From Squalus acanthias (Eukaryota), in the NCBI GenBank assembly GCA_030390025.1, contig CM059432.1, positions 41,480,001 through 41,544,000 on the forward strand: DNA of 64,000 nucleotides, given 5' to 3'. The first letter of the stretch is position 1. The number at the start of each line of letters is the position of its first letter. The translations under genes were made by a program, and so were the position numbers. Under the pieces are notes generated by a model. It had not been told where the DNA came from. It did not search any database and saw only the letters and a program-made list of their open reading frames with translations. Positions 1,698-51,964 of the stretch are shown piece by piece.

Positions 1698-2470
1698 GGG
1701 GGAAAAATTCAGTTGCTTGCGCCTCCCATTAGCGCCTTAAGAGGGCGCTAATGGGGCGTAAAGCAGCTAACGCCCGGGCGCAGCGCCACCCACGCCTCCC
1801 GAAAAATTCAGCGGGAGGTTAGCGGCGGTGGCAGCCGGTAGCGCCCTGTGGCGCTGCGCCGCCGGCGATGACGTCATCGCCGTGCGCAGCACCCCGCTCG
1901 CGCTCCAGCCGTGATCTTCAGTCGCGCCCCCTGATTTACCACCAGACGCTATGTCCGACGGGTTCAGGGAGGCGTACGTGCGGCCGGGGCGGCGATATTT
2001 AAAGGGGAGGTGGCAGGCGGCCATTTTTGTTGCTGGCCGCCTGCCAGCACCTGCCCCCGTTGCTGTCCCCGGCCCCCGTGAAGCCCCCCCACCGTGAAGT
2101 GCCGGCTGCGCTCCAAGAGCCCGGCACTTCTCTTGAGTGCCGGGCTCTTTTGCCGGCACTCCTGATCCCTGGGGGCCCAGCTGGGCCCCGGTTCGCGCTG
2201 CGCAGGGTCCCTCCCCTTTAAGAAGGGGAGGAAGGCCTGCAATACCGCGGCGCGACGTGCTGCAGCGCCTGGCACTGCGGCACGTAGCGCCAGGATATTC
2301 CCTCGCAGCGCCCCAAGAGGGATGCGGGGTGCTTCCAGTGGCGCCCCGCTTCCCTCTTGGGGCGCAACCACTGAAGTTCCGGCGCGGGGCCGCTAATTTT
2401 TTCGGGGCGCTAAAAGTCGCGCCCCGGCGAGGTTAGCGCCCCAAATGGGGCGCGACTCAATTTTTACCCC
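1698..2470. mobile_element. Non-autonomous PIF/Harbinger element (MITE) sharing ends with 8044-12284
   Basis: Left GGGGGAAAAATTCAGT; right end reverse-complements to GGGGTAAAAATTGAGT. First ~90 bp nearly identical to 8044-8130. Inserted in a CR1 tail with AT/ATG duplicated. Very CpG-rich, no coding homology. Confidence 0.88.
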
Positions 2471-4616: not shown

Positions 4617-6194
4617 GCCCAGGGCCTGATAATCTACATCCTAGGGAACTTAAGGAAGTGGCCCTAGAAATAGTAGATGCATTGCTGGTCATCTTCCAAA
4701 ATTCTATAGACTCTGGAACAGTTCCCATGGATTGGAGGGTAGCTAATGTAACCCCACTATTTAAAAAAGGTGGTAGAGAGAAAACGGGGAATTATAGACC
4801 AGTAAGCCTGACATCGGTAGTGGGGAAAATGCTAGAGTCCATTATAAAAGATGTAATAGCAGAGCACTTGGAAAACAGTGACAGGATCGGACAAAGTCAA
4901 CATGGATTTACAAAAGGTAAATCATGCTTGACTAATCTACTGGAATTTTTTGAGGATGTAACTGGTAGAATAAATAAGGGAGAACCAGTGGATGTGGTGT
5001 ATTTGGACTTTCAGAAGGCTTTCGATAAGGTCCCGCATAAGAGATTAGCGTGCAAAGTTAAAGCACATGGGATTGGGGGTAAGGTACTGACTTGGATAGA
5101 AAACTGGTTGGCAGACAGGAAGCAAAGAGTTGGAATAAACGGGTCTTTTTCCGAGTGGCAGACAGTGACTAGTGGGTTACCGCAGGGATCGGTGCTAGGA
5201 CCCCAGCTATTCACAATATATATTAATGATCTAGACGAGGGAACTAGATGTAATATCTCCAAGTTTGCAGATGACACAAAGCTGGGTGGGCGTGTGTGTT
5301 GTGAGGAGGATGCAGAGAAACTTCAGTATGATTTGGACAGGTTGGGTGATTGGGCAGATGCATGGCAGATGCAGTATAATGTGGATAAATACGAGGTTAT
5401 CCACTTTGGTGGCAAAAACAGGAAGGCAGATCTGAACGGCAATAGATTGGGAAAAGGGGAAGTGCAACGAGACCTGGGAGTCCTTGTGCACCAGTCGTTG
5501 AAGGTAAGCATGCAGGTGCAGCAGGCGGTTAAGGCAGCAAATGGTATGTTGGCCTTCATAGAGAGAGGATTCAAGTACAGGAGCAAGGATGTCTTGCTGC
5601 AGTTGTACAGGGCCTTGGTGAGACCACACCTTGAGTATTGTGTGCAGTTTTGGTCGCCTTATCTAAGGAAGGATGTTCTTGCCATGGAGGGAGTGCAGCG
5701 AAGATTCACCAGACTGATACCTGGGATGGCAGGAATGACATATGAAGAGAGATTGGGACGATTGGGCTTGTATTCACTGGAGTTTAGAAGAATGAGAGGG
5801 GATTGCATTGAAACTTATAAAATTCTAACAGGACTAGACAGACTAGATGCAGGAAGGATGTTCCTGATGGCGGGGGAGTCCAGAACCAGGGGTCACAGTC
5901 TAAAGATAAGGGGTAAGCCATTTAGGACTGAGATGAGGAGGAATTTCTTCACGCAGAGAGTGGTGAACTTGTGGAATTCTCTACCACAGAAGGCAGTTGA
6001 GGCCAATTCATTAAATATATTCAAGAAGGAGTTAGATATATTTCTCAAGGCTAAAGGGATCAAGGGATATGGGGAGAAAGCAGGGATAGGGTACTGAATT
6101 TGGATGATCAGCCATGATCTCATGAAATGGCAGAGCAGGCTCGAGGGGCCGAATGGCCTACTCCTGCTCCTATCTTCTATGTTTCTATATTTCA
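4617..6194 (+). mobile_element. 5'-truncated young CR1 LINE
   Basis: Open RT frame plus complete 3' UTR (GGCCGAATGGCCTACTCCTGCTCC, TTCTATGT-type tail). Confidence 0.96.
4658..6097 (+). CDS. CR1 ORF2 reverse-transcriptase part (no endonuclease; 5'-truncated)
   Basis: Motifs NYRPVSLTS, QHGF, YLDFQKAFDKV, SGLPQGSVLGP, KFADD, LVRPHLEYC, FFTQRVVNLWNSLP. Confidence 0.93.
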   Translation: MALEIVDALLVIFQNSIDSGTVPMDWRVANVTPLFKKGGREKTGNYRPVSLTSVVGKMLESIIKDVIAEHLENSDRIGQSQHGFTKGKSCLTNLLEFFEDVTGRINKGEPVDVVYLDFQKAFDKVPHKRLACKVKAHGIGGKVLTWIENWLADRKQRVGINGSFSEWQTVTSGLPQGSVLGPQLFTIYINDLDEGTRCNISKFADDTKLGGRVCCEEDAEKLQYDLDRLGDWADAWQMQYNVDKYEVIHFGGKNRKADLNGNRLGKGEVQRDLGVLVHQSLKVSMQVQQAVKAANGMLAFIERGFKYRSKDVLLQLYRALVRPHLEYCVQFWSPYLRKDVLAMEGVQRRFTRLIPGMAGMTYEERLGRLGLYSLEFRRMRGDCIETYKILTGLDRLDAGRMFLMAGESRTRGHSLKIRGKPFRTEMRRNFFTQRVVNLWNSLPQKAVEANSLNIFKKELDIFLKAKGIKGYGEKAGIGY

Positions 6195-7809
6195 GAGGCA
6201 TGAGCTGAGAGCCTGATTAATAGTCGGAAAGATGAGCTTGGATTTTAAAGAAGGTGAGGTCAGAAGTGGGAGTGGGGTGAGGGAGGAGATGCTTAAGTAT
6301 AGGATTAGTTTGGGAGGAGATGGAGGTCATAGAGGTTGGCCAGGGTGTTCTGTGAATAGTCCTGATACCTAACTAAGGAATGGAATGAACCACAAACAGG
6401 CTTTGACCTTCTAAAGTTCGCAGTAGAGGTTAAAAATTGTTTAAGGCACAGCTGAGTGCACTGCAATTACTCAGAATGTGCTGTTCAGTTATTAGCTGAG
6501 TCATGGCTGCTGCATGAGGTCAACTTTCTATATATCTGAGGTAATTAGTAGTAGTTGATGAGCACAGCATACCAAGAGTATAACCATTCCAGCTGGTATG
6601 CCAGATTGAATGCTTCATTGGGAAATGCCCAAGTCATTGAAATCTAAGGAACTGGCATCTACATCTAATTGTCAAAAGGGAAAAATGATTGGACAAGGAT
6701 GACCACGGCTTACTTTATTGAATTAAGATATGTATCATTGAATGCTATAAATCATTATTCAAGGGCTATAGTGTGACACGAGGTCAGCCAAATTACGTTG
6801 CTAGCTCCAGTGTTGCTTTCTGCCTAGAGAGGATGGAGCTCAGTGTCTGAGTGCTTGCTTGTAAGTGTGGAACTCTGCTCACAGGGTTTCAGTTGCTGGT
6901 TAAATTTTAATGCTGGGAGAGAGCTACTAGGAATGTCAGTTCTCTGTTAACATTGAAAAGATTCAGAATTAAGTTTAAGAAGTTCCCAGGTCATCCAATG
7001 GTGTTTTTCAACAGGACTTTCCATTGGAATGTTGTTGTCGTGCAGTGGAAGTGAAGCCCAGGCAATTTCATAAGAATACAAGAATTAGGAGCAGGAGATG
7101 GCCATACGGTCCCTCGAGTCTGCTCTGCCATTCAATAAGGTCATGGCTGATCTTCGATCTCAACTCTACTTTCCCGCCCAATCCCCATATCCCTTGATTC
7201 CCCTAGAGTCCAAAAATATATCTATCTCTGCCTTGAATATACTCAACAATTCAGCATTCACAGCCCTTTGGGGTAGAGAATTCCAAAGATTCACAACCAT
7301 CTGAGTGAAGAAATTTCTCCTCATCTCAGTCTTAAATGGCCGACCCCTTATCCTGAAACTATACCCCCTAGTTCTAGACAATCCAGCCAGGAGAAACAAT
7401 CTCTCAGCATTTACCCTGTCAATCCCCTTCAGAATCTTATATGTTTCAATGAGATCACCTCTCATTCTTCTAAACTCCAGAGAGTATAGGCCCAATCTAC
7501 TCAATTTCTCCTCATAGGACAATCCTCTCATCCCACAAATCAATCTAGTGAACCTTTGTTGCACCACCTCTGAGACAAGTATGTCTTTACTCAGATAAGG
7601 AGACCAAAACTGTGCACAGTACTCCAGGTGTGGTCTCATCAAAGTCCTGTACAATTGTAGCAAGACTTCCTTATTCTTGTACTCCAACTTCCTTGCAATA
7701 AAGGCCAACATGCCATTTGCCTTCCTAATTACTTATTGTACCTGCATGCTAACTCTTTGTGTTTCCTGTACGAGGCTACCTAAATCTCTCTGAACACCAA
7801 TATTTAATA

Positions 7810-8005
7810 TAAAACAACAACAGAAAATGCTGGAAACACTCAGCAGGTCAGGCAGCATCAAGGAGAGAGAAACAGAGTTAACGTTTCAGGTTCGACCCGA
7901 AACGTTAACTGTTTTTCTCTCTCCTCGATGCTGTCTGACCTGCTGAGTGTTTCCAGCATTTTCTGTTATTTCAGATTTCCAGCATCCGCAGTATTTTGCT
8001 ATTGT
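7810..8005. mobile_element. Penelope-derived fold-back insertion
   Basis: ~65-bp inverted arms (ACAGAAAATGCTGGAAACACTCAGCAGGTCAG... and complement); 14-bp TSD ACCAATATTTAATA at 7796-7809 and 8006-8019. Confidence 0.78.
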
Positions 8006-8553
8006 ACCAATATTTAATAGTTTCTCACCATTTAAAAAATATTGGGGGAAAAATTCAGTTGGTTGCGCCTCCCGTTAGCGCCTTAAGAGGGCGCTAATGG
8101 GGTGCAAAGCAGCTAGCACCCGGGCGCAGCGATGTTTGCGCCGCTCGGGAACTTAACTAGACATTTAGCGGCGGCGCTAAACTTTATCGCCGTGATCTCT
8201 TGTGCGCGCAGATTGTGACGTCATACGAGAGTGCAACGCTCTTGTGGCGCCCCGGAGCAGAATTTCAGTGGCGCCCCCATCCTTACCGCCTGGCGCATCC
8301 AACGACCGGTAGAGTGGAACGCTATCATTCGCTGTGGGGCTGGGGGGGGCGCTATTTAAAGGGGGCCTCTTCCTGTCTTTCTCTGTGGTGGACATTTTTG
8401 CACCACTCGTTCTGAGAGAGAGAGAGAGATTCGGAGAGAGAGAAAGAGAGACTTCTGCATTGAGTCAACGCTGTGTCAGGTAGTTTTGGCTACTCATCCT
8501 AACTTCGCTGGTACTTTGGTTTCTGGCCTTCATAACTTTGCTTGCTTAGAGAT

Positions 8554-9715
8554 ATGGGGGCTGCACTGATGGGGGGCCTCGTCCTGCGCCAGCTGAATCG
8601 GAGGACACAGAGACGCAGAGAGAGAGTGGCAATGATGGCCAGACGGAGGAGGGCCAACAGGCGTCTGTACAGGAGAGCTTACCCTCCCATGGTATATCGT
8701 GAACAGCTCTCCTACATTCATATGTCTGAGGAGCAGTGTCTGCGAAGGCTGCGCTTCAGCAAGGAGGTGGTCACTGAGCTCTGCCACCTGCTGCAGCCAG
8801 ATCTGCAGCCTCAGCTGAGGTCCAGGACGTCTCTGTCGGTGGCAGTGAAGGTCACAGTGGCTCTGAACTTTTATGCTACTGGCTCATTTCAATCTGCTGT
8901 TGGGGACATCGCCAATATCTCCCAGTTTGCGGTGCACTGCTGCATCAGGAAGGTCACAAATGTCCTCTTTAAAAAGGAGACGAGAGTTCATCTCTTTCCC
9001 CATGACCCCAGACAAGCAGCAAGAACGCGCTCTGGGCTTTGCGAGGATAGCGGGCTTCCCCATGGTGCAGGGCGCCATTGACTGCACGCATGTGGCTTTG
9101 CGTGCTCCGCATGAGAATACCGAGGATTTCCGGAACAGAAAGGGGTTCCATTCCTTGAATGTTCAGTTGGTCTGTGACCACAGACAGCTGATACTCGCTG
9201 TCAATGCCCACTATCCTGGCAGCTGCCACGATGCTTTCATCCTGCGCCAGACTACTGTGGCAGAACTTTTCGTGGCACCGCATCAGCCAGTTGGTTGGCT
9301 TCTCGGGGACAAGGGGTATCCACTGTGCACCTGGCTGATGACACCGCTCCGTACGCCCAACACCCCTGCTGAGCTGCGGTACAACGAGAGCCATCAAGCT
9401 ACCAGGAACATCGTGGAGCACACAATTGGCGTGCTCAAGCAACGGTTCCGCTGTCTCGACCATTCTGGAGGAGCCCTGCAATACTCGCCTGAGCGAGTTT
9501 CCAGCATCGTAGTTGTGTGCTGCATGCTGCATAACATGGCAATCGTCAGGACCCAGCCAATGCCACCAGGCCTTGGAGCACCACCAGAGGAGGAGGAGGA
9601 AGAGGAGGAAGAGGACGAGGAGGATGATCATCAGCAGCACCAAGGCGTGAGGGCGGCCCACAATGGTGAAACTGCAAGGGCCGTCCGTCAGCGGCTGATA
9701 GCAAGCCGCTTCTAG
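8554..9715 (+). pseudogene. Harbinger DDE transposase (HARBI1-like family), one +1 frameshift at A-run 8971-8975
   Basis: N-part LRRLRFSKEVVTELC...[16 protein letters not shown]-part [66 protein letters not shown]. Removing one A gives 386 aa. Confidence 0.94.
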
Positions 9716-10026
9716 GCCCCTGCTGTGGAAATGGCTTCTGCCATTGAGAACAGCATGAATGAACCCAACACGCAACCCCTAAGCCGGCCAAGGCACCACT
9801 GATTCCAAACACCAAACATGTATATTTTGAGTACCAAAACTTATTTATTTTACAAACTCTGTGTGTGTCATTTCTTCATGACAAACTCATACAAATAAAC
9901 ACAAAAAAACAGTCATTACCATAACTGGTTCTCACAACCTGGAGATCATGTGCAAAACACTCAACAAAAGTTTGACCACGAACCTCGGCCTTTAATAAAA
10001 AAATGACCAGCATTTTGTCACACCTC

Positions 10027-11924
10027 CTACATTGAGGGTGAACTCCTTCCCGTGCGCCCTTCCACCCTTCTTACCCTACTGTTACTCCGCAATGGGACCT
10101 CAGTGGCTGCAGCAAGGCTGGTGGAAGGCTGCTGACTGTCAGGCCCTGACAATGCAGATGCCCTTGAGGGACGGCCTCGACCAGCTCTGGGCCTGGAGGG
10201 CCCGGCTGCAGACAGCACCAACTCTGCATGGGCGGCAGCAGTCTGTCCTACAGGCGGTGGCAACTGCAGTGGAGAAGTGACAGTGGTGGCAGCAGGAATG
10301 CTGTCATCTTGAGCGAGGACAGCAACTCCCTGCTCGACCGGCACACTGGCACTCCCACGGGGCAGCACCTCAGCATCCGGAGCAATCTGCTGGAGCACAG
10401 ATTGCTGGCCTGCTGCGGCGCGGTGAGAGCCCCGGGGAAATGTGAACGAACCAGCGAGGATGGCAGCAGACCGTACTCGCGTGGCCTCAATCTGAGTCTG
10501 CATGAGAGCAGTCTGAGATTGAATTGCAGCACTGAGCTTCAGTGTCGCATCCGCCTGCGCTGCAGCGAAGTGCTCCACACTCCTTGCCAGTGCTTCAATG
10601 CATTCGGGCACCCTACCCACTGCAGCCATGAGCTCAGTGTGCATGCCCACCGCCTGGGTGTTCATTTCCGCGATCAGCCGCTCCACCTCTGCGTCCAGTG
10701 CAGCAGGACTCGCTGGCATACTCTCCCTCCGGGGAGAAGGCCCCCAAGCTTCCCTACCTCCATCGCGTTGCTGCAGCCCGCTGGGTCCTGGAGCTTCACC
10801 CTCATCAGACCCTTCCCCCCTGCTCCCCTCCAGGGAAGGCGTGTTCCCAGTGTCGGCATGGGCTTCCTCGGGAGAGGGTGGCACTGATGCTCCGGCTTCC
10901 TCTTCCTCCTCGGCTGCAGCTTCACTCCCACTGGCAGCTTCAGGGCCCGTCTCCTCAGCTGGTGAATCACCATCTGAAAGCAGGGAGGTACAAGAGTGGC
11001 TTTAGCGTGAGGACAGGGTGGCAGTAAGGGAGGAAAAAGTGCAGCGAGTTAGTAAGTTGGATTGAAAGTGTCAAAGGCTGGTGTTGTGAGGGACAAGTGG
11101 AAGGACAGAGGACAAAAAGGTGATGACCTAACCATTGCTGTCCAGAACGGGGTCGGCGTCTCCAGTGGCGACGGGACCGATCACCCGGCTTGCCACAATC
11201 CTGTGGACGCGCTCCTCCAGATCACTGAGGGGTTGCAGCTGAGGCCGCCCTCCACCCGTCCGTTGCTGCTGTCTCCTATTATGCGCCAGCTTGGCCTGCA
11301 AGAAAAAGGACGGCGTCTGAGTAAATATACAGCCATGGTCTTGCCTGATGTGCCTCCCATAGGTGAATAGCCCTTACAATATACAGCCATGGTCTTGCCT
11401 GATGTGCCTCCCATAGGTGAATAGCCCTTACTGTATACAGCCATGGTCTTGCCTGATGTGCCTCCCATAGGTGAATAGCCCTTACTGTATACAGCCATGG
11501 TCTTGCCTGATGTGCCTCCCATAGGTGAATAGCCCTTACTGTATGCAAAGTATGGAATGTGTGTGTGTGCTTCATGAAAGGGCCATAGGTGTTGGATGAG
11601 TGTTGTTAATTGTGGTTTTAAGACCCTCTGGCCATACAGTGAGGTTGAGATGGAGGGATGGAGAGGTATTGCAAAAAAGCCACTCACCCTGACGACCCGA
11701 GTGAGGTTGTTGAACTTTTTCTGGCATTGGACATGGGTCCTGGGCACCATGCTCCTGGAGGAGACGCGCTGAGCCACCTCCCTCCACACTCTTCTGTAGT
11801 CGCGCGGCAAAGGCCTCCTGCCACTCTCTGGGTACAGTATTGCTCTTCGGCGCTCCACCGCGCCAACCAGAGCATCCAAGGCCCGCTCGGTGAAGCGCTG
11901 AGCTCGTTCTCTCACCCTCTCCAT
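10027..11924 (-). CDS. Harbinger ORF2 Myb/SANT-like DNA-binding protein, 3 exons (11924-11688, 11295-11133, 10973-10027), 448 aa
   Basis: Exon 1 MERVRERAQRFTERALDALV...WREVAQRV...RTHVQCQKKFNNL; exon 2 AKLAHNRRQQQRTGGG. Introns are GT-AG. Exons sum to 1347 nt with no internal stop. Confidence 0.88.
11326..11544. repeat. 54-bp tandem repeat, ~4 near-identical copies, in intron 1 of the Myb gene
   Basis: AGCCATGG recurs at 11331, 11385, 11439 and 11493. Confidence 0.97.
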
Positions 11925-12512
11925 CCTTGGCTGGAAAATGGATTCACAGGTCTCTCCAGGCCGAGATTCAAGGCTGCAATGAGCAGGGTGTGGCTGGGGA
12001 GCAAGATCGCACCCCCCCCCTTTAAGAACTGGCCGGCGCCAGTGTGTCTGTGTTCCCTCGCTAACTGGCAGCACCTGCGCTGCGCTCGCGCTCTGAGTTA
12101 GCGCCTCACTCCTCGGCCTTTGCGCCTTAAGACAGGTGTGCAGCGCCTGATTTAGCGCTCCAATCACCTCCAGGGGCGTTAAAAGTGAAGTTTCCAGTCA
12201 GTGGCGATAATTAGCGCCAGGCGCTAATTTTTGCGCCCGGACGATATGTGCGCCCCAAACGGGGCGCGACTGAATTTATAGCCCATTCTGTTTTTCTATT
12301 CTTCCTACCAAAATGAATAACCTCACATTTCCCCACATTATACTCCATCTGCCATGTTATTGTCCACTCACTTAACCTGTCTATATCCCTTTGCAGGCTC
12401 TTTGTGTCCTCCTCACAGCTTACTTTCCCATCTAGCTTTTCATCGTCAGCAAATTTGGATACATTACACTTGGTCCCTTCATCTACGTCATTAATATAGA
12501 TTGTAAATAGCT

Positions 12513-15155
12513 GGCTACTGGGTGACAAGGAATATCCCCTCATGACATGGATTATGGCTCTGGTCAGGAACCCACGCACACATGCACAGCAGGCCTACAA
12601 TGAGAGCCATGCTGCCAACAAGGAACATTATAGAGCACACCACTGGCGTCCTCAAGCAAGACTTCTGCTGCCTGGACTGCTCTGGAGGAGCCCTGCAGTA
12701 CTCAGCTGAGCGGGTATCCAGATTTGTGGGAGTATGCTGCATGCTGCACAACCTGGCTCTTATGAGGTTATAGTCCATGTACCACCTATCAGGCGCGAAG
12801 TTGTGGAGCAGAAGCATGAGAAAGAGGAGGAGCATGAGGAGGAAGTGGAAGAGGAGGAAGTGAAACAGAAAGTGGAAGAAAAGGAAAAGGAATGGAGGCT
12901 GCAACATAGACAGTCCCTTTCTGCACAGGCTCTATGTGATCACATTATTCATGAGCGATACCAGTAACCTCAACCTCAACTGCCCATTCACCAACAGTCC
13001 CACGCTCCTTACCTTTCCTTTATAACTGGCCATCACATCGTTCTCTTTCCGACAACACAAAAACAAAAACCACCAGAAAATGCACATTCAAATCCAAATT
13101 TTATAAATTCACTCATTAAATAAGGCATACAAAATGAAACTAATCATCTTGTGCATTCCCTTAGTGCCTGCCTTCCATGTGCCTTTGCCTATCCTAGCGC
13201 TCCTATGAGGTGCTTCCCCAGTGGCTGCAGCATGGGTGGTGGAAGGCTGCTGATCTTCAATTGAGGAGACTGCAGATGGCCTTGGAGGACAACCTCGAGC
13301 AGCTCTGGGTCTAGAGTGCCCGTCTTCAGACTGCACCGTCTCGGTCTGGGCTGCAGCAGTCTGGGCTAGTTGGCTGACAGGCAACAGCAAGGGCTCTGCA
13401 GAATGGCAGGGGTGGGAGAAGGAATGCTGTCAGCTTGTGAGAGGACAGCGGGTTCGTGTTTCATGGAGCCACTACCAGTCTCCCGGGACGGCGCATCAGC
13501 AATTCTGCTGATCTATTGGAGAACAGTTTGATTGACTGCTGTGATGCCCTGGAAGTCCCTTTGAACAGTGGTATCCAGAGCCACGATGGCAGCAGTCTGA
13601 GCTCCCACTGCAGCACTCAGACCTTTGATGGAAGCTGTTTGTGCTGCAATGGAAGCTGTGACATCTGCCATCAGACACTGCATCATGGTGGGTTCTACAG
13701 GTGTGCTGATGGAGGTGACCACCCATTTCATATTCAAAAGGATGGGCTCCACGCTCTGCGCAAAGCCCGGTGCCAAGTTAGAGCTAGACTCTCCATGCTC
13801 CTTGACATTGTGTGCAGTCTTTCTAGCAGGCTTTCTAATGCACCAAGTATTTAGTTGTGTACACCCATCAGCCTATTCTGTAGCCTTTTTAAAATTCATT
13901 CACGGGATGTGGGCATTGGTGGCAAGGCCAACATTTATTGCCCATCCCTAATTGCTCATGAGAAGGTGGTGGTGAGCCACCTTCTTGAACTGCTGCAGTC
14001 CGTGTGGTGAAGGTACTCCCACAGTGCTGTTAGGGAGGGAGTTCCAGGATTTTGACCCAGCGACGATGAAGGAACGGCGATATATTTTCAAGTCAGGATG
14101 GTGTGTGACTTGAGGGGAACTTGGAGGTGGTGGTGTTCCCATGCACCTGCTTGTCATTCTAGGTGGTAGAGGTCATGGGTTTGGGAGATGCTGTCGAGAT
14201 AGCCTTGGCAAGTTGCTGATGTGCATCTTGCAGATGGCACATACTGCAGCCACGTTGCGCCGGTGGTGGAGGGAATGAATGGTGATGGATAGGGTACCAA
14301 TCAAGTGGCTGCTTTGTCCTGGATGGTGTCAAGCTTCTTGAGTGTTGTTGGAGCTGCACTCATCCAGGCAAGTGGAGAGTATTCCATCAAACTTCTGACT
14401 TCTGCCGTGTAGGTGGTGGAAAGGCTTGGAACAGTGCTAAGTGTGTGAGGGTGAGGTAAAGCATATGAACTGCAGGATTGAGTACTGATTGATTGGGATT
14501 GTTGGTAGGTGTGTGATGGGGATGCAATGAATTGAGCAGTTTATGAGGCTGCTGGTGCAGTTGGTAGGATAGGCCATTTGAAGATTAAACTCACTCACCT
14601 TGACAGCTTGTGTCAGATCGGTAAACTTCTTCCTGCACTGAATCCATGTTCTTGGAACTACATTCCTGGCATTGAACTCTGCCACTACTTTTTCCCACTG
14701 CCTCCTGAGCATATATGTGGAGAGCCTCCTGCCTCCCCTTTGGATACAGGATGTCTCTCCTTCTCTCCACATCTTGCACCAAGACCTCTAGTGCATTGTC
14801 GGAAAACCTTGGTGCTCGCTCTCTCTCTCTCGCATGTTCAGCCATTCCTCCATGTATCACAGCACAGATTTAGTTTTTAAACAACTCCCACCATTTTCTC
14901 CAGCCACAATGCACCTTCCCTTTAAGAGGTGCAGGCTGCCTTTAAGTAGCGCTAGCCACTCGCGATATTGGGCACCCTGCCGAAGCGTGCAGTCAATGAA
15001 CAACGCGGCTAGTGCTGGCTGGACACAGCAGTCATGTGAAGCATGAGGCAGCACCAATTTAATATGCTGCCTGCAACGCAATGAATGGGCGCAGATTAAT
15101 CACGTACCGTGATCCCCACCCCCGTTTTCTTGATATCTGCAAGAATTTTCAGTGC
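12513..15155 (+). mobile_element. Decayed Harbinger copy B (transposase C-terminus on +, Myb gene remnants on -)
   Basis: RNIIEHTTGVLKQ...GGALQYS...CCMLHNL at 12.5-12.8 kb; RERAPRFSD...RTWIQCRKKF at 14845-14599 followed by GTGAGT donor; exon-3 homology at 13140-13880. Confidence 0.88.
13885..14427 (-). mobile_element. 3' fragment of a second CR1-group LINE family (family B) inside Harbinger B
   Basis: SFIVAGSKSWNSLP...FKKVAHHHLL; same tail as 31566-32070 and 52406 onward. Confidence 0.85.
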
Positions 15156-16362: not shown

Positions 16363-17271
16363 AGAAACATAGAAACATAGAAGATAGGAGCAGGAGTAGG
16401 CCATTCGGCCCCTCGAGCCTGCTCCGCCATTCGATGAGATCATGGCTGATCATCCAAACTCAGTACGATGTACCTGCCTTCTCCCCATATCCCTTGATAC
16501 CTTTAGCTTTAAGAAATATATCTAACTCATTCTTGAATATATTTAATGACTTGGCCTCAACTACCTTCTGTGGTAGAGAATTCCACAGGTTCACCACTCT
16601 CTGGGTGAAGAAATTCTTCCTAATTTCTGTCCTAAATGGCTTACCCATTATCCTTAGATTATGACCCCTGGTTCTGGACTCTCCGACCATCAGGAACATT
16701 CTTCCTGCATCTAGTTTGTCCAGACATGTCAGAATTTTATATGTTTCGATGAGATCCCCTCTCATTCTTCTATACTCCAGCGAGTATAAGCCCCATCGAC
16801 CCAATCTCTCCTCATATGTCATTCCTGCCATCCCAGGTATCAGCCTTGTGAATCTTCGCTGAACTCCTTCCATGGCAAGAACATCCTTCCTCAGATAAGG
16901 CGACCAAAACTGCACACAGTACTCAAGGTGTGGTCTCACCAAGGCCCTGTACAACTGCAGCAGGACATCCCTGTTCCTATACACAAACCCTTTCGCTATG
17001 AAGGCCAACATACCATTTGCCTTCTTCACCGCCTGCTGCACCTGCATGCTTACTTTCAGCGACTGGTGCACAAGGACACCCAGGTCTTGTTGCACTTCCC
17101 CTTCTCCCAATCTATTGCCATTCAGATAATAGTCTGCTTTTCTGTTTTTGACACCAAAGTGGATAACCTCGCATTTATCCACATTATATTGCATCTGCCA
17201 CGCTTCTGCCCACTCACCCAACCTGTCCAAATCATCCTGGAGTTTCTCGGTATCCTCCTCGCAGCACACAC
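16363..17271 (-). mobile_element. 5'-truncated CR1 LINE, same young subfamily as 4617-6194
   Basis: ORF 16460-17314 is nearly identical to the C-half of 4658-6097; intact tail. Confidence 0.95.
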
Positions 17272-19143: not shown

Positions 19144-19456
19144 GGGTAACACGGTGGCATAGTGGTTAGCACTGTTGCCTCACAGCGCTAGGGACCCGGG
19201 TTCGAATCCGGCTTCGGGTGACTGTCTGTGTGGAGTTTGCACATTCTCCCCGTGTCTGCATGGGTTTCCTCCGGGTGCTCCGGTTTCCTCCCACAGTCCA
19301 AAGATGTGCGGGTTAGGTTGATTTGGCTATGATAAATTGACCCTTAGTTTTAGGGGGATTAAATACGTGGGGTTACGGGGATAGGGTGGGATATGTGTCG
19401 GTGCAGGCTCTAAATGGGCCGAAATGGCCTCTATCTGCACTGTGGGGATTCTGTGA
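19144..19456 (+). mobile_element. tRNA-derived V-SINE (HE1-like)
   Basis: A box TGGCATAGTGG (19155), B box GGTTCGAATCC (19199), V-domain GTGGAGTTTGCACATTCTCCCCGTG...TCCGGTTTCCTCCCACAGTCCAAAGA, CR1-type tail. Confidence 0.93.
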
Positions 19457-23158: not shown

Positions 23159-23478
23159 GGGCAACACGGTGGCATAGTGGTTAGCACTGTTGCCTCACAG
23201 CGCCAGGGACCCGGGTTCGAATCTGGCCTCGGGTGACTGTCTGGGTGGAGTTTGCACATTCTCCCCGTGTTTGCGTGGGTTTCCTCCGGGTGCTCCGGTT
23301 TCCTCCCACAGTCCAAAGATGTGCGGGTTAGGTTGATTTGGCTATGATAAATTGACCCATAGTATTAGGGGGGATTAAATACGTGGGGTTACGGGGATAG
23401 GGTGGGATATGTGTTGGTGCAGGCTCGATGGGCCGAAATGGCCTCTATCTGCACTGTGGGGATTCTGTGATTCTGTGA
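23159..23478 (+). mobile_element. tRNA-derived V-SINE (HE1-like), second copy
   Basis: Near-identical to 19144-19456. Confidence 0.93.
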
Positions 23479-36219: not shown

Positions 36220-39200
36220 GGCCGAGATCTTGGAGATGGCGGGAACCATGGCGTGGAACCCTGCTATCTTTTGACACTGATCATGAACAGGTCTGTTGAA
36301 ACCTGTTGGTATTTTGCAGATATAGGGGGCTAACTTGGATAAGGCATTAAAACGGGCGCGGGCAGATTGCGCATTGGGAAATTCGTGCTGCCTGCTCATT
36401 AACATGATTGAAACGCTGAGCCCAGCGCTAAACATGTTCAACAGGGGGCTCAATATCGTAGGAAGTCTGCTCTATATTTAAAGGTTGCCTGCAGAGTGAA
36501 AGGCTGTCTGCAGTTCTTAAAGGGGAGGTGCTTTGTGAGAAAAGTACCTCATTCTGACTGGAGCTGGAAGTTAGCAATGTCACAACAGGGCAGACCTTGG
36601 TGCAGGGGGCCTGTAGGAGGGGACAGGTCCTCTACCCGCAGGGGGCCAAGGCCTTCCAGACACACTGTTCAAAGGCAGTGGGAGGAGATGGCTGAAGCGG
36701 TCAGTGCCTCCAGTCTTTTCCCCAAGACATGGATCCAGTGCTGGAAGAAGTTTAATGACCTCACACGAGTGGTCAAGGTGAGTGAATCCATTTCAAATGC
36801 CCTATCCCACCAACTGTATCACTAGCCTCACACACTGCTCAATGCAACACACCCCTATCACTCACCTACCAACAATCTCTATCAATCACGCCTCATACCT
36901 CACAATCATACCTCCACCTCACCCTCACACACAAGCCTCACACCCACATCTCTCACCTTGCACATAATGGCAGCTATTCAACCATGACAGGCACATCACC
37001 CAAACACATTGCACCACACTCACTGACACACTTCCCTTTCTCTTCAAGATGGCTCACAACCGACAGGAGCAGGAACTAACAGGCGGAGGGCAGGCACGGC
37101 TGCAGCACTTGACCCAGCTGGAGGAGTTAGTTCCAGGGATGATTGGAGGGGCCGTCACTGAGGCCATGGTGATCGGCAAGACTGAAAGCATTGATGGTGA
37201 CGGTATGCTCATACCTAATCCTTCTTCACACAGCCCACTTCCACTTCATCCGACAATCGCTTCTCACTTACAAACTGCTGATGGTGTAAGCATGCACATC
37301 TTGCTCCCCCCCACCTTCCTCACCATAACCCAACCCTTGTGCTTTTCTTCTTTCCGATACCCAAGAACTGCCAGCAGCCCAGCCTGTGCAGGAAGAAGTA
37401 GAGGAAGCGAGTGATGGAGAAGAAGAGACACCGTCACTCAATCTGACACTCCAAGGCACCAGCTCAGAAAATGGCACTGTACGAACTTTAGAGGGTAGTA
37501 TAGAGGCGGCATCTGTACATGATGAGTCACCAGGCACGAGTTGGCTGCAACCAGGCCAGGGGGAAAGAGTAGCGTAGGTGCCAGCTCACCGGAGGGCGAG
37601 GTCACACACGAGTTCTGCTGCAGAGCACTCAGATGAGGATTCAATGGGGCGGCCTTCAGAAGAAGGGTGATAGGCATGCACACAGAAATGCTTGGTGCAA
37701 TGACAGGCCTGCCAGAGAACCTCTTGTCTGTGTCAAGGAGCATGGAGGAGTCTGGCTCCAACATTGCATGGGGCTTTGCGTGGAGCTTGGAGACCATGAT
37801 TTCCAGGATGGAAGTGAAGGGCAACACCATTAGTGCACTTGAGGACCCAACCATGATGCTGGGTGTGATGGGCGATGTTGCAGCTTCCATTGCAGCACAA
37901 GCGGAAGTGACCCAACATCTCAGTGCTGCAGTGGAAGCTCAGACTTCTGTCACGCAGGCTCAGTTGCTGCCACGCAAGCTCAGACTGCTGCCATTATGGT
38001 TGGATTTACAAGTGTGGAAAGGGGCTTGCAGGGTGTCACAGCAGTCCAGCAATTTGTCCTCCAATGCTGAGGCGCTGCCCCGGGGGAATGGCAGTGGCTC
38101 CGTGAAGCTCGAACCTGCTGTCCTCTCTCAGGATGACAGCATTCCTACTTCCACCACTGCCACTCTGCTAGTGCCATTGCAGTTGCCTGTCTGCCAGCTA
38201 TCCCAGACTGCTGCCGCCCATGCTGAGGTGGTGCAGTCTGCAGCTGGGCCTTCTAGGCCCAGAGCTGCTCGGGGTCGTTGTGCAAGGCCATCTGCAGTCT
38301 TCCCAATGGAAAGTCAGCAGCCTTCCACCAGCCATGCTGTCGCCACTGGGGTAGCACTGCGTAGGAGAACTAAAATAGGCAAAGGCACACAAAAGACAGA
38401 CACTAAGGGAATGCACAAGGATGATTAGTTGACTGTGTATTGTAATATTTTAATTAAACTTTTATAAATTATGTTTGGAATATTTGTTTTCTGCTGGCTC
38501 TCATTTCAGCATTGTAGCCAAGAGGATGCTGTGATGCTCCATGACAGCCCAGCCGGAATGGGGATTTACAGGCTGCCTCCTCCCTTTCTCCTCCTCCTCT
38601 TCCTCTTCCTCCACTTCCTCCTCCTGAGGTGGTTGCGGAATCTGTGGTGGCAAGGGCTGCTCCCTCATGATGGCCCAGTTGTGGAGGATGCAGCAGACCA
38701 CCATGAATTGGGACGCTCGCTCCGGTGAGTACTGGAGAACTCCTCCCGAGTGGTCAAGGCAGTGGACCCGTTGCTTGAGCACCCCAATGGTCTGCTCAAT
38801 GAGGTTCCTCGTGGCAGCATGACTGTCATTATACGAGTGCTGGCCACGAGTGGTGGGGTGTGAAGGGGAGTCATCAGCCAGGTGTAGAGAAACATAGAAA
38901 CCTAGAAGATAGGAGCCATTCGGCCCCTCGAGCCTGCTCCGCCATTCAATGCGATCATGGCTGATCATCCAAATTCAGTACCCTGTCCCTGCTTTCTCCC
39001 CATATCCCTTGATCCCCTTAGCCTTAAGAAATATATCTAACTCCTTCTTGAATATATTTAATGAATTGGCCTCAACTGCCTTCTGTGGTAGAGAATTCCA
39101 CAGGTTCACCACTCTCTGGGTGAAGAAATTCCTCCTCATCTCTGTCCTAAATGGCCTACCCCTGATCCTTAGACTGTGACCCCTGGTTCTGGACTCCCCC

Positions 39201-40844
39201 ACCATCGGGAACAGCCTTCCTGCATCTAGTCTGTCTAGTTCTGTTAGAATTTTATAAGTTTCAATGAGATCCCCTCTCATTCTTCTAAACTCTAGCGAAT
39301 ATAAGCCTAATCGACCCAATCTCTCTTCATACGTCATTCCTACCATCCCAGGTATCAGTCTGGTGAATCTTTGCTGCACTCCCTCCATGGCAAAATCATC
39401 CTTCCTCAGATAAGGCGACCAAAACTGCACACAATACTCAAGGTGTGGTCTCACCAAGGCCCTGTACAACTGCAGCAAGACATCCTTGCTCCTGTACTCG
39501 AATTCTCTTGCTATGAAGGCCAACATACCATTTGCCTTCTTAACCGCCTGCTGCACCTGCATGCTTACCTTCAGCGACTGGTGCACAAGGACACCCAGGT
39601 CTCGTTGCACTTCCCCTTTTCCCAATCTATTGTGGATAGCCCTTGTCTCTGAGCATCCACCCTCGGCTTCGACGTGGTGGCTGGAAGATTGCTGGCACAG
39701 TGGACTGATGTAGAATGAAGGCATCATGACTGCTGCCAGGATTCCGGGCATTTACCATCATAGTGTGCTGGGCGTGGTCGCACACCAACTACACATTAAG
39801 TGAGTGTTAGCCTTTGCGATTGCGGTACATCTCAGCATTGATATGAAGCGCCCGCAAAGCCACATGTGTGCAGTCGATGACGCCCTGCACCATAGGGAAG
39901 CCTGATATCCTTGCAAAGTATCATGCATGCTCCTCCAGCTTCTCTCTGTTTAAAGAGAAGACAATGAAGTCCCTTCTCCTAGAGTATGGTTCCTCTGTGA
40001 CCTCCCGGATGTAGCAATGGACAGCGACTGCAAGATGTTTGCTATGTTGCCTGTTCCAGCCTGGAAGGATCCGCTGGCAAAAAAATTCAGGGCCACGGCC
40101 ATCTTGAGTGCCACTGGCAGCGCCGTGGTCGCCCTGCTCTCAGGCTGCAGGTCTGGTTGCAAGAGGCGGCAGAGTTCTGTGACTACCTCCTCGGTGAAGT
40201 GGAGCCGCCGAACACACTGCTCCTGGCTTAGGTGCATGTAGGAGCAGTGCTGTCAGAAGACCTTAGGTGGGTAAGGCCTCCTGCTGAGAGCCCTCCTCCT
40301 CCTCCCTCTGCGAGCAGCTTGTCTTTGCTGCCTCATCTCCATCTCCCTGTCATGCTGCAGTGCGACGGGAACTGCAACTAGAGTTCCCATGACTGGGAGC
40401 AAGTGGTGTAGCCAGAGGCCTTCCAGTAGCAGCCAACAGCTTTCCAACATCCAGCAGCACACTCTGCACACTTTAACAATGTTATAAATGTCATCCAGCA
40501 ACCCAGTATTGATATAAACTCTGCAAGAGCCAGTACAAGAGAAATAATCAAATTACCTGCAAGTTAATTACGTTCAGCTGTGTGTGTTTAGGAGAGGGCG
40601 TTGTTTGGAGCGGCGATGTCGAAAAAGGTATGTCGTGCGTCAAATCAGCGTTACACACTGACTGATGTCACGATCTGCCTACTCTGCATACTACCAGCGC
40701 ACGCACGTCTTGCCTGTGCTATCACCCTCACCAACATGACGACCAGCGCGGGCTGTGCCGGAAGTGGGTGGAAGCAAGGCGACCGCCATTTTATTCTCGA
40801 AACTGGCCTTAACTGCTGGCGCTAAGGTGCTGAATTTCACGGCC
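36220..40844 (-). mobile_element. Decayed full-length Harbinger copy C (Myb on +, transposase on -)
   Basis: Ends GGCCGAGATCTT and rc GGCCGTGAAATT; Myb exons from 36578 (KTWIQCWKKFNDLTRVVK|GTGAGT) to 38428; transposase 40390 to ~38500 with stops and frameshifts. Confidence 0.9.
38890..39631 (-). mobile_element. Young 5'-truncated CR1 inserted in the transposase of copy C
   Basis: Near-identical to the 3' part of 4617-6194; splits DKGYP|LYTWL. Confidence 0.94.
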
Positions 40845-44669: not shown

Positions 44670-47455
44670 AGCCTAGAAATTGGAGAGTACCCGAAAAAGG
44701 ACCATGTCATAGCCCAGCTGCACTGGGTTAAAGTAGTTCAGGCAGCATGCAAAATTCAGGCGGAGTGCTCATTTACATGATTATAGTGATGATCTCAGCG
44801 CTAAACATGCTGCTGATTGGTTTCCCGCTCAACAGGTGGGCCAATATTGGGTGCAGTCTAATTGCTAGTAATATTTGGCCTAGGATTTCTCCACTACTTA
44901 AAGGGGGAGGTGCTTTGATGGAGCAGCACCTCATTGTTGTTGGAGCGTGAATTGAATCACACCTGAAGTTGGAAGATATGGCTAAGCACAAGCAAAGAGA
45001 ATGAGCCTGAAGGTTCTCAGATGTGGCTCTGGTGGTATTGGTGGTGGCCATGGAGAGGTGGCAGCCTGTCCTGTTCCTGCAGACTGGCAGGAAACCATCA
45101 GCCCATACATTGAGAAGGCTCTGGCAAGAGATATCTAGGTACGTGACGGCCAACAGTGTGATCCTCAGAACATGGATCCAGTGCCGCAAGAAGTTTAATG
45201 ACCTCACATGGCAGGTCACGGTGAGTGAAGGCTTCAGCAAATACTATATTCCACCATCTGCACCACAAACCTCACACAATGCTCAATGCACCACACCCCC
45301 ATCGTTCACCTACCAACAATCTCTACCTATCACCACTCAGACCTCACAATCATAGCTTCACTTCACCCTCACAACCTTACCACTGCTGCAACACTCACAC
45401 CCCTATTGAACTATGGCAGGCATATCGCCCAAACACATTGCACCACACTCACTGACACACCTCCCTTTCTCTTGCAGGCCAAGGTTGCTCACAATCACTG
45501 GGAGCAGCGGCAGACGGGAGGCGGCCAAGCCACAATACAGGCCTTGAGCCAACTGGAGGAGAGTGTGCTCGACATCATTGGAGGGGAAGTGACCGAGGCC
45601 GTGGCAACGGGCGAAGTTGAAGCCCTTGGGGACAATAACGGTATCTTCATTCCTAATCCTCCTTCTCACATCCCACTTCCGTCTCATCCCACAATCTCTT
45701 TTGACTTACAAGCTGCTGATGCTGTATGCATGGATATCTTGCCTTCCCTCCCTCACCATAACCCAACTCTTGTGCCTTTCTGCTTTCAGATGACCAAGAC
45801 CTGCCAGCCGTAGAGCCTGTCCCTGAAGCAATGGAGGAGAGTGAAGGAGAAGAAGAAGGCACATTGTCACTGCATCTGACACTCGCAGACACCAGCTCAG
45901 AAACTGGCACTGCGCGGAATTTAGAGAGTAGAATAGATGCGGGATCTGCACATGGTGGGGCACTGGGCACGAGTGGGCTGCAGCAAGGCCGGGGGAATGG
46001 CTAGCTTGGGGGCCAACTCCCCAAAGGGCAAGTTCGCACGTGAGTTCTGCTGCACACGACTCAGATGATGACCTCGATGGGACGGCCTTCAGAAGAAGGG
46101 TGAAGGGCATGCACACCGAATTGCTAGGCGCAAAAGCAAGCCTGCCAGAGAGCCTCATGGCAATGTCAAGGAGCATGGAGGAGTCCAACTCCAACATTGA
46201 ACGGGGCTTTGTGCAGAGCTTGGTGCCCATGATTTCCAGACTGGAAATCACAAGTGTGATTAGTTGATATTGTAATGTGAATTGAATAGTGATAATTTAT
46301 TCATTTTGTTTGGAATGTTTATTTTTTGATGGCTCTCATTTCAGCTTTGTGCCCAGGAGGACGCTGTGATATTCCGTGACACAGGGATGGTATGATGGGG
46401 ATGTGGTTGATGAGGATGTGGTGAGCAACGGGGCTCTGGGGTTTCATTCACTGGAATTTAAGTCTGATGAGGCGTTCACGGACAGCCCGTGCCGAAGTGG
46501 GATTTGGTGCCTGCCTCCTCTCTTTCTCCTCCCCTCCCTCATCCTCTTCCTGAGGTGGTCCCACAATCCCTGCAGACAAGGTCTGCGCCCTCATGATGGC
46601 CAAATTGTGGAGCATGCAGCAGACCACCATGAAATGGGACACCCGCTCTGCCGAGTATTGGAGGGCTCCTCCCAAGCGGTCAAGGCAGCGGAACCGTTGC
46701 TTCAGCAGCCTGTTGGTCTGCTCGATGATGTTCCTGGGGCAGGATGGCTCTCATTATCTGAGTGCTGGGCACAAGTGTTGGGGTTGGGGAGGGAAGTCCT
46801 GAGCCAGGTGCAGAGCCGATGGCCCTTGTCTCTGAGCAGCCACCCTCGGCTTTGACGTGGTGGCTGGAAGATTGCTGGCACAGCGGACTGACATAGAATG
46901 AAGGCATCATGACAGCTGCCAGGATACCGGGCATTCACCATGTGCTGGGCATCGTCACACACTGACTCCACATTAAGTGAGTGTTAGCCTTTGTGATTGC
47001 GATACATCTCAGCATTGATATGAGGCGCCCGCAAAGCCACATGTGTACAGTCGATGGCGCCCTGCACCATGGGGTAGCCTGATATCCTGGCAAAGCCACA
47101 TGCGCGCTCCTCCTGCTTCTCTCTGTTTAGAGAGAAGCAGATGAAGTCCCTTCTCCTGGCATACAGAGCCTCTGTGACCTCCCGGATGCAGCGATGGATG
47201 GTGAGCTGCGAGATGTTTGCTATATTGCCTGTTCCAGCTTGGAAGGAACCACTAGCAAAAAAATTCAGGGCCACGGTCACCTTGAGAGCCACTGGCAGCG
47301 CCATCATCGCCCTGTTCTGAGGTCTGTTTGCAAGAGGTGGCAGAGTTCTGTGACCACCTCCTTGGTGAAGCAGTCGCCTAATACACTGCTCCTGGCTTAG
47401 TTGCAGGTAGGAGAAGTGCTCCCTGAGACCCTAGGTGGGGAAGGCCTCCTCCCTC
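44670..47455 (-). mobile_element. Decayed, internally deleted Harbinger copy D (Myb on +, transposase on -)
   Basis: RTWIQCRKKFNDL..|GTGAGT at 45220; exon 2 AKVAHN..TGGG at 45478; transposase [25 protein letters not shown] within 46445-47450. Confidence 0.88.
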
Positions 47456-51082: not shown

Positions 51083-51964
51083 GGGGGAGAAATTCGGTAT
51101 CGCCCCATTTGGGGAGCAATTATCGGCCGGGCACAAAGTTTAGTGCCTGGTGCTAATTATCGCCTCCGACTGCAAACTTGGCTTCTATCGCCCCTGGAGG
51201 TGATTGGAGTGCTAAATCAGGCGCTACACACCTCTCTTAAGGCGCTAATGCCGAGGAGTGAGGCGCTACCTCAGAGCACTGGCGAAGCTCAAGTGATGTC
51301 AGTCAGCAATGGAACACAGCCACACTGGCGCCAGCCAGTTCTTAAAGGGGAGGGTCGATCTTGCTCTCCATCCACACCCTGCTCATTGCAGCCTTGAATC
51401 TCGGCCTGGAGAGACCTGTATATCAATTCTGCTGGAAAGAACAATGGAGAGACCCAGGAAAAGAGCTCAGAGTGCAGCCCCCCAGTCTCTTCTAAATCAA
51501 TGCAAGGAAGGTCAAATCAAAATGAACCTGCAAAGTGCTGCTCAGTACCCAAAATTCCTTCACACAGCATTGAATCTCTCCAGAAGTCTTTTCTCTCTCT
51601 CTCTCTCTCTCAGAATGCGTGGTGCAAAAATGTTGCCGACAAAAAAAGGCAGGAAGCGGCCGCCTTTAAATAGCGCTCCCCCAGTCCCTTCCCGACTGCA
51701 AAACGTTCCCCTCTACCTGTTGTTGCTAGCGGTAAAGCAGGGGGCGCCACTCAATATCCGGTCCGGGGCGCTACCGGGGCGTTGCACGCTCGACTGACGT
51801 CACAATCTGCGGGCGCAGGAGATCATGGCGGTAGTGTTTAGCGCCGCCACAAAATATCTGGTCAATTTCGCGAGCGGCGCAAACATCGCCGCGCCTGGGT
51901 GCTAGTTGCTTTGCGCCCTCTTAGGGCGCTAACGGGAGGCGCAAAGCAAACCAATTTTTCCCCC
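51083..51964 (-). mobile_element. Internal-deletion derivative of Harbinger family A
   Basis: TAA TSD (51080-51082, 51965-51967); 51083-51470 matches rc of ~12284-11900 and 51471-51964 matches rc of ~8568-8044. Confidence 0.92.

Follow-up and report, generated by a model that had tools for sequence, protein, structure and literature searches.

The window analysed here, a stretch of 64,000 nucleotides from Squalus acanthias (GenBank assembly GCA_030390025.1, contig CM059432.1, positions 41,480,001 to 41,544,000 of the forward strand), contains a Harbinger transposon of 4,241 bp at positions 8044..12284. The element was inserted into a CR1-type long interspersed nuclear element (LINE) with a 3-bp target-site duplication, and carries two convergent genes, one for a DDE transposase and the other for a Myb-like protein, between terminal inverted repeats (Table 1). 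A sequence-only reading of the window had described it as a nearly intact, autonomous two-gene Harbinger. We found that the element was indeed a full-length two-gene PIF/Harbinger, but that its transposase frame was broken. With a probability of about 0.7, we consider it a full-length, most likely disabled copy of an elasmobranch PIF/Harbinger family of very high copy number.

Table 1. Features of the Harbinger element, its insertion site and its short relatives in the window
Feature	Position	Strand	Evidence or remark
Host CR1-type LINE fragment, 3' part	7076..8043	-	Contains a hairpin insertion of 210 bp at 7810-8019
Left target-site duplication, ATT	8041..8043	+	Removing the insert restores the CR1 frame
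Left terminal inverted repeat	8044..8059	+	13/16 complementary to the right end; also on two short elements of the window
Left subterminal GC-rich region, repeated GGCGCTAA/TTAGCGCC motifs	8060..8343	.	Candidate Myb-binding array
TATA-like TATTTAAAGGG box	8353..8363	+	Upstream of the transposase; TTAAAGG core found at the equivalent position of the two short elements
DDE transposase gene	8554..9715 (ATG 8554, TAG 9715)	+	386 aa with X at the break; D176, D226, D252, E288
Five-A run, one base surplus (frameshift)	8971..8975	+	Homologues align gap-free across it; 8 X7 contigs imply four A
AT-rich region between the convergent stops	9716..10026	.	AATAAA at 9894 and 9994 (+) and 9844 (-); ATTAAA at 9991 (-)
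Myb-like exon 3 with stop	10027..10973	-	C-terminus lacks 9 nt present in other copies
Myb-like intron 2, 159 nt, GT-AG	10974..11132	-	Predicted; skipped exactly in 3 X17 contigs
Myb-like exon 2	11133..11295	-	32/51 relatives align over the exon 1/2 junction
Myb-like intron 1, 392 nt	11296..11687	-	Contains a 54-bp tandem array
Myb-like exon 1, Myb/SANT domain	11688..11924	-	Myb_DNA-bind_5 (PF13873), E 4e-10; 51 relatives
Right subterminal region	11985..12268	.	Same motif array; TTAAAGGG box at 12018, oriented toward the Myb gene
Right terminal inverted repeat	12269..12284	-	13/16 complementary to the left end
Right target-site duplication, ATT	12285..12287	+	
Host CR1-type LINE fragment, continuing part	12288..12513	-	Frame continuity; Pfam RVT_1 match (E 0.002) that misses the curated cut-off
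MITE-like element (miniature inverted-repeat transposable element), ends only shared	1698..2470	+	93% over 88 nt, 78% over 65 nt
Non-autonomous internal-deletion relative	51083..51964	-	Coding core missing, both ends kept; duplication is TTA; identity to the element ends 75% and 83%

Both terminal inverted repeats announced by the sequence-only reading were present, though imperfect, with 13 of 16 bases complementary between the left and right ends, and their end sequence was shared with the two short elements of the window. The 3-base match of ATT with ATT was weak on its own, with a chance expectation of about 2%, and the empty site was therefore tested by removing the element together with one ATT. 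This yielded a single continuous CR1 open reading frame 2, and the junction aligned without gaps to the CR1 copy at 16876-17265; the other two CR1 copies shown had gaps near the junction position. Because the empty site restored the CR1 frame and aligned gap-free, the insertion and its boundaries are real, and the exact ATT duplication inside a CR1 that had been proposed earlier was confirmed.

The two ends of the element also shared a sequence motif. The GGCGCTAA 8-mer occurred six times in the two terminal 300-mers and not once in the 3,641-nt interior, and was found at all six ends of three related elements. AGCGCC was seen seven times in the terminal 300-mers against a shuffle mean of 1.06, and none of 1000 shuffles reached seven. 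By analogy only, the GGCGCTAA arrays are likely candidate Myb-binding sites. A TTAAAGG-type box stood ahead of each of the two genes and recurred in the short elements; a promoter role of the TATTTAAAGGG box is putative.

The abundance of the family was assessed by seeking the words of the element in 24 listed runs, whose organisms were coded A, B, C and so on. Part of the element was found in 20 of them, from 12 studies and ten coded organisms. These ten shared 8-73% of the element words, with at least half of the words present in nine runs, from organisms A to E. Contigs of four runs (X1, X6, X7 and X17) were then compared with the window over positions 7975-11320, which comprise 3,277 of the 4,241 element bases and omit the right end and Myb exon 1. 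X1, X6 and X7 are DNA runs of three coded organisms, whereas X17, one run of one study, was labelled RNA by guess, none of the runs holding the element being recorded as RNA. Matching contigs numbered 29,542 in X1 (from about 55% of the run), 9,887 in X6, 8,988 in X7 and 1,241 in X17, and all four runs covered 30 of 30 bins of the compared stretch. The contigs were short with variants collapsed, and their depth does not equal copy number. The family is plainly very abundant in the three coded organisms. Among the contigs, 15-26% were at least 99% identical to the element, 26-33% fell at 95-99%, 34-46% at 90-95% and 7-13% below that, with a floor of 88%. In each run the eight longest pieces, which are skewed toward diverged copies, showed an average difference of 5.4-9.8%.

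The host CR1 carries a second insertion 24 bases from the element, a 210-bp hairpin with 76-nt arms that are 92% complementary and with a 14-nt duplication; an Rfam search of it gave sub-threshold hairpin matches only. In run X1, nine contigs fused the hairpin tail straight to a Harbinger end, and further Harbinger copies may lie beside the same hairpin repeat. No contig spanning the left junction was present among the 32 of about 49,900 pieces listed.

The transposase matched Pfam DDE_Tnp_4 with an E-value of 7e-40, and all the DDE blocks noted by the sequence-only reading were present (D176, D226, D252 and E288). D176, D252 and E288 together with this domain identify a Harbinger/IS5-type DDE transposase. 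A structure model of the catalytic part was confident, with a predicted local distance difference test score (pLDDT) of 88.8. When this model was used in a fold search, no match was obtained at E <= 0.001; the best hit was weak (E 3.5e-3), the matches being mostly integrases and transposases, and a sequence search of solved structures returned no match. The frame was interrupted by one surplus base in a run of five A, across which 18 relatives aligned gap-free, and the first transposase frame ended at 9081, ahead of every catalytic residue. Eight contigs of run X7, represented by one loose-end row, gave a four-A reading at this place. A programmed frameshift was considered and rejected, as other copies appear to have four A. 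Since the frameshift lies upstream of all catalytic residues, no transposase is expected from this copy; it is most likely disabled unless the extra A is an assembly error. The break sits in a homopolymer, and if the extra base were such an error this copy itself may be among the autonomous ones. As assembled, the element does not have both frames open.

The second gene was separate from the transposase and encoded a Myb/SANT domain, as expected of a PIF/Harbinger element. Its three exons were separated by introns of 392 and 159 nt with GT-AG borders, and the spliced frame of 448 aa had no internal stop, in agreement with the open Myb partner gene described from the letters. An in-frame word-index search for exon 1 gave none among 337 candidates, and an exhaustive search found 51 relatives. 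Intron 2 was skipped exactly, over 159 nt at the joint 10973-11133, in three contigs of X17; no such skip occurred in the three DNA runs. This shows that the Myb gene of the family is transcribed and spliced, as seen in one run, with the source copy not necessarily this one. In all four runs the Myb C-terminus was 9 nt longer than here and had a basic tail. Intron 1 holds a tandem array of a 54-bp unit at 11326-11544 (4.1 copies, 98% matches), outside the stretch compared with contigs; it is probably a recent local expansion, and a weaker single match to the unit lies inside a Harbinger relic at 45403-45524. Between the convergent stops, the AATAAA signals given earlier at 9894 and on the minus strand at 9844 were where they had been placed, while the one given as 9993 belongs at 9994 on the plus strand. 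From the position of these signals, the 3' ends of the two transcripts may overlap.

We further investigated the state and age of this copy from a table of 210 differences, 40 rows of which were shown. Sixteen of the 40 rows were apparent private differences, in which another base was carried by 85% or more of the depth in each of the three DNA runs. Thirteen of these were coding: two were silent, and of the 11 missense changes five affected the transposase and six the Myb protein. Given a missense to silent site ratio of 3.02, a count of 11 to 2 fits neutral change (p=0.54) and does not fit a ratio of nonsynonymous to synonymous rates (dN/dS) of 0.2 (p=0.0007). Codon 46 was methionine here and arginine in 50 of the 67 relatives covering it; two of the five transposase changes, at 317 and 318, were borderline, and isoleucine 318 was common among relatives. 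The claim of only one disabling lesion therefore stood for frame breaks but not for the private missense changes and the Myb C-terminus shortened by 9 nt. A domesticated gene pair, or a host gene of the HARBI1/NAIF1 type, was rejected on the terminal inverted repeats, the target-site duplication, the thousands of contigs and the neutral missense ratio.

The divergence of the copy was bounded between 0.48% (16/3,346) and 3.8% (126 places, X6). One frame break was present in 2,502 coding bases, whereas 0.8-2.4 would be expected at 0.5-1% divergence and 6-9 at 3.8%; these expectations, and the open-frame fractions below, rest on assumed indel rates. Since a single break per 2,502 coding bases favours the low end, the divergence of this copy is estimated at about 0.5-1.5%. 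At 0.5-1%, the modelled share of copies with both frames open was 9-45%, so that such copies probably exist, and the suggestion that intact copies may be found is likely to hold. The mutation rate of a shark has been reported as 7e-10 per generation, with an interval of 1.4-14.1e-10, from an epaulette-shark pedigree (PMC10587355). At that rate 0.48% corresponds to 6.8 million generations (3.4-34 million). The insertion is young compared with other repeats here, yet its age is probably millions of generations. The earlier view that the family moved recently was accordingly borne out on the substitution scale, but was not supported in absolute time, as 0.5% amounts to some 3-34 million generations and five organisms share at least half of the words. 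The observed to expected ratio of CpG was 0.57 in the element, 0.20-0.30 in the flanking CR1, 0.27 in a neighbouring relic and 0.40-0.45 in the rest of the window. CpG retention, which had been listed as a sign of youth, did exceed that of the flanking CR1, but it is a weak clock, and as proof of recency it was rejected on the comparison of 0.57 with 0.40-0.45.

Several points weigh against the reading as a disabled copy of the family. The four-A reading comes from a single loose-end row in one run, and the indel table has no deletion there. One X17 contig was identical to the window at 9845-10003, over 159 of 159 bases, and is therefore either a near-identical sibling or this very copy in organism A. 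The remaining 170 of the 210 difference rows lie outside the analysed set, and the changes counted as private could be subfamily differences if the source species is outside the compared organisms. The mutation rate, finally, was borrowed from a single carpet-shark pedigree and has a tenfold interval.

At seven of the 40 shown places, the majority base of organism A was mostly absent from B and C, which suggests that amplification went on after the lineage of A split from those of B and C. The same shift in base shares speaks for the view that the family is still mobile, with open-frame autonomous copies expressed in the germ line and inserting anew. The spliced Myb intron 2 in X17, the 15-26% of contigs at least 99% alike with one identical over 159 nt, and the homopolymer position of the frame break are all consistent with present mobility. 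Transcription of a family does not equal transposition, however, and 99% is easily reached by short contigs, while the longest contigs differed by 5-10% on average per run. The private changes of this copy look neutral (11 missense versus two silent), its right terminal inverted repeat is degenerate compared with the left, and the presence of the family in five or more organisms suggests that amplification preceded or spanned speciation. We therefore regard a family that is still moving as unlikely. The opposite view, that the family is long extinct, would have all copies decayed from a burst before the lineages split, the low divergence reflecting a slow shark clock and the spliced RNA arising by read-through or host-driven transcription. 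It draws on the ten coded organisms sharing 8-73% of the words, with no less than half present in five of them, on the largest identity class being 90-95%, on the slow mutation rate of sharks, and on the presence in the window of four Harbinger relics that are older and carry stops and breaks. We judged it highly improbable, because base shares differed between organisms and because one break in 2,502 coding bases means that siblings of the same age would often be fully open.

The listed or looked-up relatives of the two proteins were almost all elasmobranch. Among the 120 transposase matches listed, 113 were shark or ray proteins, including the top 76, with a best identity of 68%, and all ten of the Myb relatives looked up (of 51 found) were elasmobranch. 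A quick tree was built from the window protein and 61 of the 120 listed matches picked by hand (62 rows); it placed the window transposase among Pristiophorus (sawshark) sequences, within a set of 25 rows with a support of 95. On this kinship the host is most likely an elasmobranch. The nesting within the elasmobranch radiation requires no transfer. The high word sharing in several coded organisms might also reflect a young element passed horizontally between marine vertebrates, in the way reported for Harbinger-Snek of sea kraits (PMC8437027); we consider such transfer extremely improbable.

Descent with amplification of a high-copy elasmobranch family, followed by decay of this copy, is the explanation that we prefer. 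Both proteins are needed in the systems studied so far, where the Myb-like protein is reported to bind the ends and import the transposase (PMC2836001, PMC9392472). By analogy with Harbinger3_DR and Ping/Pong, the Myb/SANT protein would bind the element ends, here probably at the GGCGCTAA arrays, and bring about nuclear import of the DDE transposase; together they would excise the element and reinsert it at an AT-rich triplet. Once inserted, this copy would have drifted neutrally to about 0.5-1.5% from the family and acquired the frameshift upstream of the catalytic residues. It could still supply Myb protein or be mobilised in trans; a split supply of the two functions has been reported in Caenorhabditis inopinata (PMC13668399).

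Other Harbinger sequences were present in the window. The MITE-like element is flanked by a 10-nt direct repeat (1688-1697 and 2471-2480) without a clean 3-bp duplication, and appears to lie inside a short tandem tail, so its true duplication is ambiguous. Older Harbinger relics at 12512 to about 14900 (+), 36600-40310 (-) and 45000-47450 (-) showed about 70% DNA identity to the element, with stops and CR1-type interruptions. The host CR1 abuts the relic at 12512, which leaves a Harbinger nested in a CR1 beside an older Harbinger. The window also holds a young CR1-type repeat pair (5440-6193 and 38889-39632, 93% identity) and another young repeat pair at 19144-19456 and 23159-23470 with 95.5% identity.

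Five clades of HARBI1-named shark and ray proteins were seen among the transposase matches (P0010/P0014; P0042/P0046; P0068/P0025/P0023; P0007/P0016/P0024/P0012/P0015/P0017; P0005/P0006). They joined distant genera on short branches with 74-92% core identity. Of their 15 proteins, 13 were without one or more of the catalytic D, D and E, and the remaining two without D226. On these sequence features, the clades look like putative elasmobranch-specific domesticated Harbinger transposases, and they may exceed the element itself in interest; our literature search found no paper on them. A Myb-like protein of about 409 aa (P0129), whose 90% cluster spans Hypanus, Mobula and Hemitrygon, is a candidate domesticated Myb partner in rays.

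The single copy matters little. A model at the level of the family adds detail on the Harbingers of cartilaginous fishes, and the full-length model, which gives the ends, the exon structure and one confirmed splice, can serve as a starting point. That this is a large, still expressed elasmobranch Harbinger radiation with naturally intact two-gene copies mobile today is a doubtful proposition. If copies do still move, the family would be a native two-component vertebrate transposon that needs no reconstruction, and could provide insertion markers for a group that evolves slowly, although Harbinger-Snek of sea kraits already offers intact candidates. It would also be the first demonstrated active DNA transposon family in cartilaginous fish, none having been found in our literature search.

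Our literature search returned no description of this family, which subscription papers, Dfam, Repbase or supplements may list, and no reconstruction or assay of it. In the available text of the grey reef shark and whale shark genome papers, Harbingers are mentioned as a repeat class only (PMC12498223, PMC8455134), and a 2022 survey, in the part available, recorded no Harbingers in the elephant shark and called for other cartilaginous fishes to be surveyed (PMC9179366). The nearest relatives, up to 68% identical, are named putative nuclease HARBI1 (in Pristiophorus japonicus, Heptranchias perlo and others). These elasmobranch entries are automatic gene models of other Harbinger families; D, D and E were kept in 52 of the 107 that cover all three sites. 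The Myb-bearing Harbingers of Pleurodeles waltl likewise represent a large expansion in a vertebrate, in which both the Myb and the transposase domains are expressed, but they are amphibian and their expression has been tied to regeneration (PMC5741667), a link for which nothing here speaks.

Like Harbinger3_DR of zebrafish, a reconstructed two-gene system (PMC2836001, PMC9392472, PMC3016246), the element combines a DDE transposase and a Myb-like gene with terminal inverted repeats, a 3-bp duplication and short non-autonomous derivatives. The two differ in target, since Harbinger3_DR is reported to use a CWG-centred palindrome and this family AT-rich triplets, and this family is far more abundant than the published accounts indicate for Harbinger3_DR. 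Harbinger-Snek is likewise a vertebrate Harbinger with two genes and many copies, for which deletion derivatives and RNA evidence are known. For it, 269 fully intact copies were reported in Laticauda colubrina and RNA over both genes in L. laticaudata (PMC8437027), so that a natural two-component vertebrate Harbinger is not the novelty that had been anticipated. Its intact copies and horizontal origin are reported, whereas here intact copies are predicted and elasmobranch descent suffices.

The PIF/Harbinger group of the PHIS superfamily, as described by Han et al. in 2015 (PMC4482050), has two open reading frames, a mean length of about 4.1 kb and a TWA duplication. The element agrees in its DDE and Myb/SANT reading frames, in a length near that mean and, at the level of the family, possibly in TWA preference. 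The triplets were ATT for this copy, which is not TWA, TTA for the internal-deletion relative, and TAA at the end of an 80-contig consensus flank (X1, agreement 0.73), with the MITE-like element ambiguous. ATT taken alone fits the ANT pattern given for the Pangu group in the same account; membership of Pangu was rejected, as ANT fits this copy only. Because the relative has TTA and the pooled flank ends in TAA, ATT is read as an off-consensus target of this copy. Together, these comparisons place the element as a new family member within the known PIF/Harbinger kind.

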